From IMG/VR virus record IMGVR_UViG_3300021255_001460, positions 1 to 64,000 of that record: a stretch of 64,000 bases of DNA; one strand, written 5' to 3'. A program made the position numbers and the translations under genes. The stretch is from a virus (lineage: Duplodnaviria; Caudoviricetes). Below are positions 3,200 to 52,300 of the stretch, piece after piece. Under the pieces are notes generated by a model. It did no database searches and was not told where the DNA came from. It saw only the letters and a list, made by a program, of their open reading frames with translations. The number at the start of each line of letters is the position of its first letter. The stretch's first letter is position 1.

Positions 3200-6100
3200 A
3201 TGAGTTTTGTTGGAGTTGTGGAATTGTTGGAAGACTTGATCGTTAAGCAAGCACATTGTAAGCGCGGAAGTGCAGATGCAAATTATTACGATAATGTGCG
3301 GCACGGTGTGGAGCGGACACTGGATAAATTGGGAATTGATTACGAATACGAAGACACTGAGGATGAAAATTATCCTTTTGGCATAAAGAAAATCACGATT
3401 TATGACGCAGAATTCCGGGCAACCGAAAAAGAACTGAAACCGCTAACGAAAGGAGCAAACAACAAATGAAGATTAACGAAATGACATTTAAAGATGAAAT
3501 CAACGCGACCGACCGTGTGCGAAAAATAATGTATTGTGTGCGGAAATTGAACTTACTGCTGAAGGATGTCAATGCTTGCTACCAGACCGAGAAATCATTT
3601 GCGAACAACATAGATATAACAAATAAAGATCTCGATGTAGAACTGTTAGAAAAATATATGGATTATGTTACAGAAGCAGTTATTAATTTAATCAGAGCGG
3701 AAGTTATCCGCTGGGGTTTACATGAAGGGAGCGATAAATGATGTTGGAATTTGCAGATTATCTCCATGATGATAAATGTGGCGGCGAACCGGAAGAACGC
3801 TGGGTCAAAACCTTTGACTACTATGGGCAGAAGATTGAAGTGATTGAAGTTCACTTCAACACAGCTTCAACACCGCACATCATTCAGAAAGGTGTGCTGG
3901 TTCACTTCGACAATGGCGAACCCGATGCACTTTATGACTACAACTTCTCCATGCTCTATGATGCGGACGATCTGGAATGTATGTTCTACACCGAAACCGC
4001 AACAGAAAACTTTACCGATAATGGCTACGGCCTATACACAGCAAAGGAGTGGTGATGATGACACTATACGAATTCATGAAGACCTACGATAGCTGGGAAG
4101 TCACTTGCTGGGATAAGGAAATCGATGTGGAATTCTACTTCTACAATGAGGACGATGCCGAAGCGGAAAATGATCTGTGGGATTCCACAATGTTGCGGCT
4201 ATCAAAGTTGCTGGAAGTTGTCGAAGTCGTTGAGGGCGAACCCGGAATGCGTGAGGGTGTTGTCGTTGATATGTACGGACTGATTGATAAGCATCTCGCC
4301 CAACTGAAGGCCGCACACATTATTGGCAAACATATGGACACTGCGGATGTGGTTGAGAATATGGAGATGATTCTTGCCGGGAATCTCACCGAAAAGGAAT
4401 TCGACGAATTCGTTTTGGTACTGGAAAAGTGAGGAGGGTGCGTATGATGAAAGCGTCAATCGTGGAAAGTGCCGCAAAGAAGTACAACGAGATTATGAAT
4501 TGTATTGGGCAGGAACACAAAACAATCGGAACTATCCTGTCCGAAAATAGTTCAGATAATCCAGTAAATATTCAAAACCGCCTATACACGATTCGTGATA
4601 TGGTTGCGGAATGTGACTATATTCTGTCTCTGTATTATGAATCAGGTCACGGACGGAATGATCTGCGGTATGGGGATGAATTGGAGCGGAAGTGTTGGCG
4701 GTCTGATGTCGGAAAGTTGAAACGCTTCATCGCACATTACGAAAAGTACTTAACACCTGAGATCGGCAACGTTGAGCGCCACTGCTCACGGTATGATGTA
4801 GAACCGTTTGACTGGAAATACTGGAAAGTTGAGGTGTAAGTTATGCGTCGAAGCTACTATGAACTGGAGCGAGAAGACGGAACATTCGATCTGCGCTACA
4901 CCAGCGACAAGACCGACGAATTTAACTTGATCTGCGACGGTTACAAGCGGATCTCCCGGCACGAAGCTTTCCGGTTGTGCAATACAGAAAAAATGAGGCG
5001 GCTCACGGATGACAAACTTGCATGGTTGTCGGACGATACGGTCGCCCCAGCTTATGTAGATGAAGATAAGCTTGATGCGGATTACTTCATCTCAAGTGAA
5101 GGTATCTGGGAAATGAAACCGGAACTTGTGGCACAAGCAGACATGAGAGGATGGTAATAATATGAAGAAAACAATGAAGATTATGGATATCAATAACGAT
5201 GGCGACCACTTGATCTGCATTAAGGATTTGACCGCAAAAAGGAATCCGTATAAAATCTACCAAGTGTACTGGAAGGATGGCTGGCATCGGAAATTGCTTA
5301 CCAAGTATGAAGATTTCCAGTCCGTCATCTGGTTTCTCAAGTACTACTACATTGACTACGCGAAGCAGAATGTTGAGGAGTGGCTGAAATGAAAACTACA
5401 TCTAATCTTGATCGCTGGTATGTGGAAACTAATGACACTGAAGTGACACTTACAGTAAATGGCATCGAGAAAACCGCAACGAGGATTATTACCCGTGAAT
5501 ATATGGATGTTATCTTTGATGAAGATGAGCGGACATCATTCTTTGATCTGGATAGCATAGCGTTGGATGCGTTTGGCAGAGGTCTGAGTGATGATCAGAT
5601 CGCGAAAGAAAACCAGAAGTTCGGCAAGGCCACAGTTAACCACATTATCCTTATGGCTCATATGTACAAAGAAGCTGGCGGGATTTATGTTGGGATTGAT
5701 CAGGAAATTACATATGGAAACGGGCTTACATTCAGCAAAGAAGTCAGAACAGATGATGATCTGAATGCTGACGGTGATTTCTGATAAGGAGCGGCTGAAA
5801 TGAGCGCAAAATTTGTGGTCGGACAGCAGTATTGTCCAGCCGATAGCGGATATGAACCTGTTACGGTAGTACGCCGCACAGAAAAGTACATCACAGTTCG
5901 TAACAGTTACAATGAATGGCGAATGCTGGTGCGAACCGATGAACATGGTGTGGAGTACGCCCGGGATTCATCTTATTCTGGGCCGTGGCAAGAATCATTC
6001 ACCTACCGAGCGGATAATTGGGATATAAAGGAAAGGGAGAATTGATTATGGGTTATGTTTACAAAGCTGAGATTATGACAAGCAAAGATCAAACAGAATA

Positions 6101-19255: not shown

Positions 19256-22200
19256 ATGAGCATGGTGGTCTATCATCTACACAGTGACAACTCAATGTTC
19301 GACTGTGCCACCGACTTTGCCGACTATATCGCGTTAGCCAAAGAGCAAGGCATGACCGCGATTGGCTCAAGCGAACACGGCATCCATCGTGACTGGGTTC
19401 GCAAGAAGCTACTGTGCGAAGAGGCTGGGCTGAAGTTTCTGAATGGTGTAGAGATCTACCTTACTGAGTCGCTGGAAGAAAAGGTGCGCGACAACTATCA
19501 CACCATATTGATCGCCAAGAACCATGATGGTCTGGTGGAACTCAATCGTGCGGTCTACAACTCCACAAAGCCCGACCACATGTTCTACAACAACCGCCTG
19601 ACTTTTGATGAGTTTCTGGCGCTGTCCGACAATATCATTAAGATCAGCGCCTGTATAGCTTCGCCACTCTGCCGTTTGCCGCATGATCATCCTTACTACA
19701 ACAGGTTGGTCGAGGCGTATGACTTCCTTGAGATTCAGCATCACAATATTCCGCTCCAGAAAGAATATAACTCTTGGCTGTGGCAACTGTCCTGCGAGTA
19801 TGGCAAGCCACTGATTGCTGGCACTGACACACATGCCGCCACCAAGTACAAGGCCGATTGCCGCCAGATTATGCTTGACTACAAGAAGCAAAGATATGAC
19901 GGCGAGGATGAGATGGATCTGACTTGGATTACTGAGCAGGATCTTGTGGCGGCTTATGCACGGCAAGGTGTTTTGCCACAAGCAGTTTATCTGGAAGCAA
20001 TCGCAAACACGAACAAGCTGGCTGACATGGTGGAAGATGAGCCGCTGGATAGGTCGATCAAGTATCCTATTCTGTACGGTTCTCGAGAAAAGGATGAAGA
20101 GGTTTTTGAAAACCGCATCCAAGAAATGTTTGCGGCAAAGTTGCGTGACGGTGTGATTCCGATGAGCCAGAAGGAAGCATATGAGAAAGCAATTGATGAA
20201 GAGTTGAGCGTATTCAAGAAGCTACATATGTGCGGCTTTATGCTTTCCCAGAGCGAACTGGTCAAATGGTGTCATGATAATGATATTCCGACAGGGCCAT
20301 CCCGTGGTTCTGTTGGCGGCTCGAGGATTGCATACATTACCGACATCATCGATATGAATCCCGAGACACTCAATACAATCTTCTCACGCTTCTGTAATGA
20401 ATCTCGTGTAGAGGTGGGTGGACATATCGCTCACCTAATAAAAATCTGTTGAACTGCTGGAACACCCTGAGAGCCTTGATACCAAAACAGAACGATGAAA
20501 TATGCGTAGATGGCAATGGTTTGAAAAGTTCAAGGATTGGGCAATCAGCAACCAAGCCCCGAACAGGGGAAGGCTCAACGACCATTCCGTAAGGAAGTAC
20601 ACCGTAAGCGCGGTGGAAGTGGCAGACGCTATATAAGCGAAGATATGGTCTGTTCTCTACAGAAAGTGTAGAGAGGTTAATCCTTGCACGGAGTAGCGAT
20701 CCGAGCAAAACATTCAAAGATATTGATACCGATATTATTACCGAAGACCGCCCGAAGATATTTGAATACATCGCCAGCCGTTTTGGTAGCGAGTTCACAG
20801 CACGGGTTGGTTCATATGGTACGTACTCAGATAAGAATATCATCATCGATGTTGGTGCGGCACTTGCAAACAACTGGTTGCGCGATCACGGTGAAGATGA
20901 CCGCGAACTCAGTCCTTATCCGCTGAAACGTGTTGACCGCATCAAGAAAGAATACGACTCAGATCCTGATGCGACTGCAAAGAAATATCCCGACATCTTC
21001 TACTACTACGAAGGCTTGAAGAATGTCCGCAAGCAACAAGGAGTCCACCCGGCTGGTATGGTGATTTCGCCAGTTAATCTGATCGACGAATACGGCGTGA
21101 TGTACAAAGATGGCGAGAACGTTCTGATTCACGACATGGATGCGGTTCATGATGCTGGTTTGGTCAAGTACGATTTTCTTGGACTGAAGACCATTGCCGT
21201 TATTCGTGACACATGTAAGCTTGCTGGCATCCCCTATCCACGCTATCACACAATGGACTGGGATGACCAGAAGGTATGGAAGGATATCTGCGATTTTCCA
21301 CAGGCTATCTTCCAGATGGAATCTCAGTTTGCGGCAGACGCGATCAAAACATTCCAAGCCAAGAGCATTGCTGACATGACTCTGGTGACCGCATGTATTC
21401 GGCCTTCTGGTGAATCATACCGTGATAAGGTCTTTGCACATATTGCAAATAAGAATCCGACCAAAGAAATGGATAACCTTTTTGCGAACAGTCTTGGTTA
21501 TCTGGTTTATCAGGAACAGATCATTGAAGCCCTCATCAAATTGTGCGGTTTCAGTGGAAGTGAAGCCGACACGGTTCGCCGCGATATTGCAAAGAAAAAA
21601 GAAGACAAAGTTGCCGCCGACGTTATTAAGATCCGTGAAGGATATTGCGCTCGTTCTGATAAGCCGCGAGAAGTTGCTGAGAAAGAGTGCGAGGAAATGC
21701 TTCAGGTTATCAATGATGCAAGTGGGTATAGCTTTGGATACAATCATGCCGCTGGATATAGTTTGATCGGCTACATCTGTGGCTGGCTTCGGTACTACTA
21801 CCCCACTGAATTTGTTGCGGCTTGGATGAACAACGCTGATGGTAAGGATGATCTCGCCACAGGTACTGCTTTGATGCGGCGCTACAATGTCCGAGTTATG
21901 CCGCCAAAGTTTGGTGTCAGTAAGAGCGGATTTGGTTGCGACCACGAAAAGCATGAGTGCGCTATTGGCCTGATCTCTATCGATGGCTTCGGCTCAACAC
22001 AGGGCGATGCGCTTTACAAGCTGGCACATGAGCATGAGTACAAATCATTTGTGGATCTGCTCGACGACATATTTGAAACCCGCGCACTGAATGCCACACA
22101 GGTTCAGCAGTTGATCGACATCGACTTCTTTTCAATGTTTGGCAATATTAACGAACTGACAAGCATCTACGAGTTCTACAACATGCTGGGTAACCGCAAA

Positions 22201-22701
22201 ACATTGAACAAGGAGAAGTACGCAAATACACCGATTCAGTGCATTATCCAGCAAAACGCCAACGGCTTAACTGCAAAGGGTGCTGAAGCCAAGGTATGGA
22301 CGATAACCAACCGCCACCAACTCCTGCTCGACATTGAAGAGTATGTTCGCCGCCAGAAGCTGGATGATCTGTCAACCATAAGCAAGGCAATAGTTTACGC
22401 AAGGATTATGAACGGCGAGTGTCCGGTCACAGGCCGCGAAGAAGACCGCCCCAAGCTTTATGTCAAATCGGTGTATCCGGTCAAGCGCAAGAAGGACAAC
22501 AAACAGTTTGGTGTGGCGATCACAACCAGATCCTTGGGCAGTGGTATTGAGTCGCGCTTCACGATCTTTATGAATGTGTACAACCAAGATCCGGTCGAGG
22601 CTGGCGACTTTGTTTTTGTGCGGCGCTATTCGGCTGACACAAAGGGCGACACAACTTACTTTACTTTGTGGGAGTACTATAAGTTATATCCCGGAGATTA
22701 A
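19256..22701 (+). CDS. dnaE: DNA polymerase III alpha subunit, split by a group I intron (exons 19256-20419 and 20719-22701, 1048 aa)
   Basis: PHP HLHSD, GPSRGSVGGS, FSRFCNESRVEVG|DIDTD, HPAG, KYDFLG, YQEQ, YSFGYNHA. Confidence 0.92.
20420..20718 (+). ncRNA. group I intron without ORF (299 nt) in dnaE
   Basis: P1 AGGTGGGT/GCTCACCT with U.G at 20419; P 20452-66, Q AATCAGCA 20543, R TCAACGACC 20575, S GAAGATATGGTCT 20639; P9 hairpin; removal restores VEVGDIDTD. Confidence 0.88.
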
Positions 22702-49339: not shown

Positions 49340-52300
49340 TCACATAATACCTGATGTTTGATAGTCTGGTAGTGCTTCCAGTCGTTCCATTCTTGTATTG
49401 ATATAATCCTTTTGCGGTGATTTTACTTCCCAACCAAACCGCATATTGGGTGTACCACATACAATGAAGTAAGCTGGATATCTTTCTTTAACAAAGCACA
49501 TGCCATCGTCATAGGCTTGAATAAAGACTTGATACGCACTTGTACTAATAGTTTCGGCAAATACTGGATCGAGATCAACATATGCGTATCCGTCCGCACC
49601 AATTATTCCCTCGCCAATATCTCCAAACATTGGTGTCGGTGTTTCGTATGCGGACATAGTAACCGCGCCATAATGTTCCGTGGTAAATAATCTATTCTTC
49701 TGTCCACCACCAACTACAGTGAAATAATGGCCTGATGGAATATTCATGGATATATCGCCGTTTTGGTAAAACCGCATGTAACACCCGGCACTCTCTGCAT
49801 CCGGTTCGTCGCTATATCCAAGTTCAAATGCATTTTGGTATCCAGATACACCCTGTAAAAAACCACGATAATAACCACCAGCAATGATGTTAATCGTATT
49901 ATTGAATCCGCATCTGCCATCATTCCAAAAATACATTTGCCCACCACTAGACACAAGAGTCATCGTCATCGTGCCATCGGAACTCCATACACAACTTGAT
50001 GCATTGCCAATCACCATATTCCCGGCATGGTCAATAAAGCATCCGTGGGTTTGGTTTACATTTGAGGAACGAAAAGTCCAACCAGCACTCGTTGGTGGTC
50101 GAAGTACTGTATAACTTGTACTGCCACCAATATTGGAAGCACTATATAAGTTCCCGTATTGATCAATTGTCCAACCGCCAATCTTACCGCCAGTTGCAGT
50201 AATATTACTACACGTAACAGCGCCAGCCGTAGTTACTTGGAAAGCACCATTCCCGATATTAATCGATGCACCACTGATAGACCCACCAGTGACAGTCAGA
50301 TTGCTACAACTCACAGCACCAGCAGTAGATACGGTAAAAGCGCCGCTACCAATATTGATAGATGTACCACTGATCGACCCACCAGTGACAGTAAGGTTTG
50401 TACAAGTAACCTTACCACTCGCAGTTACCCTGAATGGCGCTGATGCAAGTGTCGAACTACCAGCATAAATAACAACATTGTCACCAGTCACACCAGAGCG
50501 CAACCCAACACGGGAAGCACCAGTGCCGCTATATAACGTATCTGTTCCGATTGTCCAACCAGCAATACTGCCGCCATTCTTTGCGGTCATATAGCCGTTT
50601 TGGTCAATCGAGAAACCGTTGTTAATTGTGGTATGACCAATCAAGCTGATCTTGGATGCATTAATGGTCGCACCTTCGGTTGACACATTGATCGCATTGA
50701 TTACGCCGTTCTGATCAACCTTTGCCGACCACGAAGATGCGTTCTGTTCAACTGTGGTCTTTACGCCGCTATAAGTATTGTTGACGGTTTGCATGATCGA
50801 CTCTGGCATCAGCCTAATAGTAGTCTGCATCCCAGTGATCGTGCTGTTCGCCGACAGGTCAATGCTTTGCCCCACACCAGCCGCCAGATGACTTGCGGTA
50901 ATTGTTCCAGCTTCAATTCGCGCCGCAGAAAGATAACCAGTGATTATCTCGTCGGCACTAAAGCCTCGTCCTGCACATGATTCCATTATTACTAATGGCG
51001 TAGACTATCTCTTAATCCACTTGGGATTCAGTGCGCTTCGACTGGTAACTCATCTTCCAGCCTACATAATAGTCGTTACACCTTCCGCTTTGTTGCGGCT
51101 TGGCACGGTATTATCCACGAAGGACTTCACCGTTAGCAACTTACGTCACACCCCTGAGTAATAGGGTTCACACTGTTTAACCAATATGTCGCCACATTGG
51201 TGGGCCTGAACGTTGACCCAAATGTTCTCCAGTTCCAATTACCGTTTTCATCTTTGCCGTTCGCGATCATAAATCCGTCGCCGCACAACATCATCGCGGC
51301 CTCATCGTTTGCCTCGACAAACATCATGTTTCCGTTGTCGTCCGTATACCATGAAGATCTGGACGACATGAACTGATGCTTCAGCACATCGATAGTTCCT
51401 TCGAGCCGCTCAGTAAATATCGAGCCATCCATATTGATAATGTTTGTGCGGTTATAAATGTCTGCTCTTGATTGCAGTTCGCTTGTTACTTCGCTGATGC
51501 GTTGCAGTACAGATCCAAGATCCTTGCCGCTCAACGAAATATCTTCATCCGTGATCTCGATCTTGTCATCCCACGGGTGATCCATATACCGTGTAATCTT
51601 CTTGACATACAACAGTGCATTTACGTTCAGGATTGCATCGTAAACTCGCACCTCTGTATTAATCTCAAAGTCATAGATGTCGCGCCCCAATACCTGTGCC
51701 ATGTTTGTGCGGGTCACAGAGTAAGTCACAACTGGGCGGCTCATGCGTTCCATTACATTCTGGGCATCAGCATACAGGGCGGCTTCCTGACCGACAATGT
51801 AGTTCGGATTGTTCCACTTGCCATCCTTAATCAGGTCGCCCAGAGAAGAATGCATGAAGGTAGACTCCGCATCAATCTGCTGTTGCTGAATGTTCGCCAC
51901 CGCAAGCGAATTTTTATACACGGTGTAAGCCAGATCAGCCGCACGATACATGATAACTTTCAGGCCAAGTTCCTTTTCGGTTGTACTTCCCCAGCCGTCA
52001 TAGATCTTATTGATCTCGGTCTGAATCTCGGCTATCTGTGCGCGGTATGTGGCTTTCTTTTCCTCACTCGCTGTTGCCGCAATCATTCGGTTCAGCGACT
52101 TGATGCTCTCCTGCTTTGCCGCAATCGAAGCTTCCATCGAGCCAACCCAGCCAGCCGATGTACCAGTACCAGACTTCGACAGGGTGGCGTATTTCACCGC
52201 ATACTTGTCAGTGCTGTTAAAAGTGATAGCGCCGCCAGCACCTACGGTTACCGCACGATAAACCTTGTTCGGGCCAACTACGATAACATAGTCGCCCTCG

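Follow-up and report, generated by a model that had tools for sequence, protein, structure and literature searches.

The window analysed here, a stretch of 64,000 nucleotides, belongs to a 90-kb IMG/VR phage contig and carries a replication module made up of a primase-helicase, a PD-(D/E)XK nuclease, DnaE, ThyX, dUTPase and NrdD. DnaE, the sole polymerase of the module, is encoded by two exons separated by a 299-nt group I intron, which is inserted between a Gly and an Asp codon, directly 5' of the codons for the catalytic DIDTD motif (Table 1). Translation is likely to start at the Met at 19256 or 19262, and the full-length, intronless relatives P0003 and P0124 begin MVVYH and MSMVVYH, respectively. 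The covariance model RF00028 of Rfam gives a full-length match at 20386-20673 (60.2 bits, E 8.6e-13, for a gathering score of 50), and this is the only group I intron above the Rfam threshold found in the region. The conserved catalytic core P3-P8, with its P3/P7 pseudoknot, is present, as seen from this score and from the covariation in P7. No homing-endonuclease ORF was found inside the intron, in which all the sense-strand ORFs are of 47 aa or less. On these features we regard the element as a genuine group I intron of a phage-type subfamily, without an endonuclease gene. An earlier sequence-only reading of the locus had placed it at 20412-20725; the intron is real, while the start given there belongs to the exon strand of P1, and the first intron base is 20420.

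Table 1. Coordinates of the dnaE exons, of the intron and of its structural elements in the window.
Feature	Position	Strand	Evidence and remarks
dnaE exon 1 (PHP domain and start of the polymerase palm)	19256..20419	+	translation; Pfam PHP, DNA_pol3_alpha positions 15-101
Antisense ORF, 167 aa, spurious, across the whole intron and both junctions	20370..20873	-	called elsewhere as P0137
P1 hairpin	20412..20436	+	sequence; fold (-13.4 kcal/mol); homologous P1 of relatives
dnaE group I intron	20420..20718	+	Rfam RF00028
P7 5' strand	20578..20585	+	Rfam alignment; G20580 of the G-binding pair, bulged C20579
P7 3' strand AUGGUCU	20645..20651	+	Rfam alignment, covariation; C20650 pairs with G20580
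P9 hairpin, 9 bp, loop GAAAG	20653..20675	+	Rfam alignment, folds
3' hairpin, loop GUAGCGA	20684..20708	+	folds; also in L157, L162, L166, L167, L170, L172 and L158
3' tail AACAUUCAAA, 10 nt	20709..20718	+	A20718 at the position of the relatives' terminal G
P10, 3' exon strand GAUAU	20719..20723	+	pairs with AUAUC 20424-20428, adjoins the U.G pair
dnaE exon 2, begins at DIDTD	20719..22701	+	translation; Pfam DNA_pol3_alpha 103-260, finger and HHH_6 domains

The point at which the two exons have to be joined is fixed at VEVG/DIDTD (slashes mark junctions) by intronless alleles and by the Pfam profile. Exon 1 ends in ...RVEVG, and DNA_pol3_alpha runs to position 101 at residue 428 of exon 1 and resumes at position 103 at residue 1 of exon 2, with no residue missing or added across the junction. 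The intronless JGI contig L007, about 95% identical to the window in DNA over 6 kb, differs from it at the intron by an exact presence/absence of 299 nt and reads RVEVG-DIDTD (GTA GAA GTT GGG/GAC ATT GAT). In P0003 and P0124, which belong to the same 90% cluster, the junction is RVEPP-DIDTD; exon 2 of the window is 100% identical to P0003 (about 99.7% for P0003 and P0124 together), and over 120 other relatives run through the VEVG/DIDTD point without interruption. The sequence GGU GAU AUU is obtained only by joining 20419 to 20719 or 20420 to 20720. The sequence-only reading had likewise held that only an end at A20718, or a 1-nt shift of both sites, restores VEVG-DIDTD, and the profile and the intronless alleles agree with it. 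It was also right that G20719, taken as the terminal (omega) G together with the canonical 5' site, frameshifts the polymerase, as U20419 joined to A20720 gives a shifted frame that meets a stop at 20926. When the 5' site is set at U20419, the frame is kept only by a 3' site after A20718, and the intron then does not end in the terminal G, provided that the base call is correct; under a shift of both sites by one base the terminal G would be there.

Both exons are under purifying selection, the codon differences from L007 being 55 synonymous and 3 non-synonymous in exon 1 and 68 and 12 in exon 2 (123 versus 15 for the two together). From this selection we infer that the intron functions, that is, that it splices itself out and leaves ligated exons.

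The elements that guide splicing at the 5' site are those of an ordinary group I intron. P1 consists of A20412-U20419 paired to G20429-U20436, 8 bp with U20419.G20429 at the 5' splice site, and sequence, fold and the homologous P1 of the relatives all agree on this helix, as had been claimed from the sequence. In the minimum-energy fold it is extended by two further pairs on the intron side, namely G20420-C20428 and G20421.U20427. That a P1 extension draws on guide bases later taken up by P10 is usual in the standard mechanism, and the relatives too have short extensions of this kind; this accounts for the first intron base, G20420, which mimics the first base of exon 2. P10 itself is present as 5 bp contiguous with P1 and, again in accord with the earlier claim, places the start of the 3' exon at G20719; the ligated exons and the guide form 13 continuous bp (-19.7 kcal/mol in the fold). 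Three synonymous differences from L007, at 20413, 20416 and 20419, each convert a guide mismatch to a pair, and the change from GAC in L007 to GAU in the window, at +3 of exon 2, completes P10. The G-binding pair, next to its bulged base, is standard, as had also been proposed, and identical to that of the relatives, among which P7 shows a compensatory change (GACCAU with AUGGUC versus GACUAU with AUAGUC).

A search with a degenerate pattern of the core identified 25 viral loci. The nearest GenBank relative is the intron of Streptococcus phage Str-PAP-1 (L147), which, like those of L155, L157, L162, L166 and L172, has a core about 75-86% identical to that of the dnaE intron. These relatives have in common with it a P1 theme, P7 with its covariation and the 3' domain, and they lie in other host genes (tail, terminase and others), not in dnaE. 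The P1 theme, GGGU/ paired with GCUC..., takes the form AUGGGU/ with GCUCAU in Str-PAP-1, AUGGGU/ with GCCCAU in L155, CGGGU/ with GCUCG in L162 and GGUGGGU/ with GCUCACC in the dnaE intron, and this homology therefore places the site of the first step after U20419. The 3' domain of the relatives comprises P9, a small hairpin, a hairpin with the loop GUAGCGA and, last, a short tail with the terminal G at its end. The tail is of 10 nt in L162 (AACAUAACAG/GAUUUC, with a terminal G), in L157 (AACAAAUCGG/GGGAAA) and in L166, of 12 nt in L172 and probably also of 12 nt in L161. The resulting junctions are TG/DFWFQLDE in L162, where 120 homologues have N, A, D, S or G directly after TG, in no case Y, and PKKN/GKSEL in the terminase of L157. 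The introns of L162, L157, L166 and L172, for which the junction was placed, all end in G, whereas the dnaE intron has an A at this position, followed by the G of the exon. The tail length, varying from 10 to 12 nt, is no more than suggestive of where the terminal position lies, and the P9.0 pairing does not discriminate between the models of the splice sites. Both ends of the dnaE intron nonetheless appear to be in register with the subfamily, in the same register that restores the frame, so that only the last base would deviate. The GUAGCGA loop is near-invariant across the subfamily of the dnaE intron, and its hairpin probably makes a tertiary contact.

Could the missing G simply have been lost in assembly? 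The sequence-only reading had listed such an error (AAAGGAT) among its options, and we rejected it. The antisense ORF that spans the intron is called as P0137 on an independent ENA contig; P0137 is 96% identical, its differences all fall in the exon parts, and its frame is unbroken across both junctions, which excludes an indel at the 3' junction. Neither P0137 nor any other protein record separates A from G at 20718: the base is synonymous in both frames, at the third position of Ser in that of P0137 (UCU versus UCC) and of Lys in that of dnaE. An ORF in frame 2 (20684-20926) would separate the two (Lys versus Arg); it is not in the protein collection, and a full HMMER search gave only two weak matches, neither of which shows an evident relation to it. 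Intron-bearing alleles have been assembled independently, as 607-aa exon-2 ORFs (P0123, P0125 and P0133) on at least 7 contigs, and the translations of four different exon-1 ORFs continue into the intron as VEVGGHIAHLIKIC. Neither the dnaE intron nor its 3' junction was matched by exact pattern in viral contigs, a set from which near-identical records may be absent, and searches of metagenome, viral and genome collections with exon 2 yielded intronless or distant relatives only. The window also contains a second group I intron, in a tail gene (about 50974-51234, minus strand; ORF-less; 31 bits by Rfam, below threshold), whose ends are ordinary (GGGU/ on the 5' side and ...CAUGUG/ on the 3' side) and whose splicing restores WRTFG-S-GRGFSADEI. 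Together with the alignment of 6 kb to L007 without a frameshift, these ordinary ends make the assembly look sound and the phage not generally odd in this respect. The gene-caller "proteins" P0137-P0142 are antisense translations of group I intron cores, with a conserved ...PYGMVVEPSPVRGLVADCPIL... in common; such records, present in large collections, are a usable handle on intron copies.

A natural terminal-A intron is the best-supported of the options that had been set out for this locus, and we put the chance of a real one, ligating at A20718/G20719, a little short of even. The tail homology backs the position of the end at A20718, while the identity of the base comes from one contig. We infer that phages of this population do carry the A and that their exons are joined at A/G, probably inefficiently and guided mainly by P10. 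The intron would first be cut after U20419 of the U.G pair of P1; the 3' exon would replace the P1 extension and form a perfect 5-bp P10 stacked on P1, which would set the A20718-G20719 bond for exon ligation, this being the sole ligation from U20419 expected to give a working polymerase. Most simply, the terminal A would have arisen by a G-to-A transition that left the G-binding site unchanged. The more specific proposal, that a compact phage intron with a standard G-C binding site joins its exons at A/G with P10 and the tail choosing the 3' site, is one we advance tentatively. Against a terminal A are the core, which is the same as in the relatives and bears no sign of adaptation to it, the single contig as the source of the base, and the adjoining G20719, which could act as terminal G and give a frameshifted mRNA. 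Given the unchanged core and this competing G, the terminal A looks recent; it may be tolerated owing to the unusually good 5-bp P10, or the A may be a miscall or a private variant. In Tetrahymena, changing the terminal G to A with the wild-type binding site reportedly nearly abolishes exon ligation.

A substitution at 20718 was not among the options of the sequence-only reading, and we consider it rather unlikely. Were the true or ancestral base G (UUCAAG/GAUAUU), with the A a consensus miscall or a rare private variant, a single transition would yield a canonical intron with the modal 10-nt tail, and a core without compensation for an A would be as expected; the A has been seen in no independent copy, as the base is synonymous in the two frames, and the scanning of many windows tends to catch such rare errors. 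Substitution errors in an assembled consensus are rare, however, the remaining region is free of defects relative to L007, and a private variant, if lethal in an essential gene, should not dominate the sample enough to be assembled. Canonical chemistry on the sequence as it stands, with U20419 joined to A20720, would require nothing unusual, and the resulting frame has no stop for 69 codons, up to 20926. The mRNA would then be frameshifted and the allele defective or productive of almost no polymerase. That the only polymerase of the module should lose its catalytic DIDTD motif, while intron-bearing alleles occur on at least 7 contigs and both exons are under strong purifying selection, makes this outcome improbable.

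The alternative of shifting both sites by one base would put the first cleavage behind G20420, the partner of C20428, and make G20719 the terminal G; the mRNA would be the same as from ligation at A20718/G20719, and the 5' exon would end in G rather than U. A terminal G and a standard G-binding site are thereby retained, P1 and P10 stay contiguous through G20420-C20428 and AUAU with AUAU, and the 11-nt tail falls within the 10-12 nt of the subfamily. Yet an intact U.G one base upstream, homologous to the cleavage site of the relatives, specifies the site, and G20420 is already accounted for by the P1 extension. Such a shift can never have been ancestral, as the intron would then be preceded by the G of the Asp codon, so that both sites must have slipped. 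The shifted splicing envisaged by the sequence-only reading is thus an option made less likely by the homologous U.G pair, and we judge it quite improbable and place it clearly below a terminal A on these sequence comparisons. G20703, also proposed there as the terminal G, is in frame and follows a G, and would add SKTFK before DIDTD. We rejected it as 3' site: it is paired with C20689 in folds of the conserved GUAGCGA hairpin, AGCAA offers no P10, and the extra residues occur in no homologue and would interrupt a continuous Pfam profile, all of which renders its use barely credible.

If ligation does take place at A20718/G20719, the intron departs from what is known of its class. Annotation and engineering of group I introns take the terminal G and the U.G pair to be invariant. 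In the Tetrahymena work of Michel in 1989 and of Been and Perrotta in 1991, engineered terminal-A introns are said to have been active only in combination with a changed G-C binding pair; the pair of the dnaE intron is the wild-type G-C. The hexacoral mitochondrial intron ND5-717 is reported to be without the conserved terminal G, yet its exons are perfectly ligated in vivo, inefficiently (PMC6545197). It resembles the dnaE intron in being a natural group I intron from which the terminal G is absent, and differs from this compact phage intron in being giant, vertically inherited, organellar and poorly spliced, with genes in P8; ligation was seen in RNA there, and here it is predicted from sequence. 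In a recent database the U.G pair counts as completely conserved and G as the usual last base, and intron candidates without the U are discarded (PMC11835236). In the literature we found no report of a missing terminal G in a phage or bacterial intron. Provided that the base call is right, the dnaE intron would be a rare exception to a near-universal rule and the first such intron outside cnidarian mitochondria, easy to study in vitro. It would offer a tractable natural system for the share of P10 and tail versus G-binding in the choice of the 3' splice site, and would imply that genuine introns can escape the boundary rules of annotation pipelines. Should the A be a miscall, the dnaE intron is an ordinary one in a hot spot for introns of phage dnaE.

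That the DxD motif of phage DnaE is such a hot spot is indicated by a family of introns at a neighbouring site, GAU/AUH, in the same gene and catalytic motif, 3 nt downstream and with a related core that has a P7.1/P7.2-like insert. They were found in L006 (1821-3000), L014, L017 (3187-3470), L018, L053, L073-L075 and L085, and in Lysinibacillus phage LC76P1. All have a U before the intron and a terminal G, and their guide, which differs from that of the window intron, forms a P1 that covaries with the exon (GGAGAU with GUCUCC versus GGCGAU with GUCGCC). Several are of 0.8-1.2 kb, and the intron ORFs of L006 and LC76P1 match LAGLIDADG endonuclease families. At the site of the window intron itself, the exon-2 ORFs of P0005 and P0016 read MLNIS/DIDVD and ..ANIT/DIDTD, which suggests introns at the same dnaE site; a scan of viral contigs with P0005 gave no match, and one with P0016 gave 52 loci, all contiguous at the site of the dnaE intron.

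P0003 and P0124 diverge from the window over the last approximately 60 residues of exon 1 (FMNETRVEPP versus FCNESRVEVG, about 20230-20419), in what looks like a boundary of recombination or co-conversion at the intron site. The presence/absence polymorphism and the divergent ends of exon 1 indicate past mobility of the dnaE intron.

Two further insertions interrupt dnaE in L005, at 3718-4722 (about 1.0 kb) and 5140-6039 (about 0.9 kb), near exon 2 residues 203 and 341, and such insertions are also seen in L013. Both of those in L005 contain ORFs of 104-185 aa, and neither has an Rfam match at E<=0.01; an intein was rejected for 3718-4722, which contains about 30 in-frame stops. A third group I intron candidate of the phage under study lies beyond the end of the window (G000:C1:65280-65485, minus strand, 33 bits). 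In L057 (2630-3500), an intron of the GAU/AUH family with the guide GUCUCC is found 7 nt further upstream, after a second copy of GGAGAU (GAG GAG AU/A) rather than after GGA GAU/, and looks as if it had moved to a site resembling the usual target of its guide.
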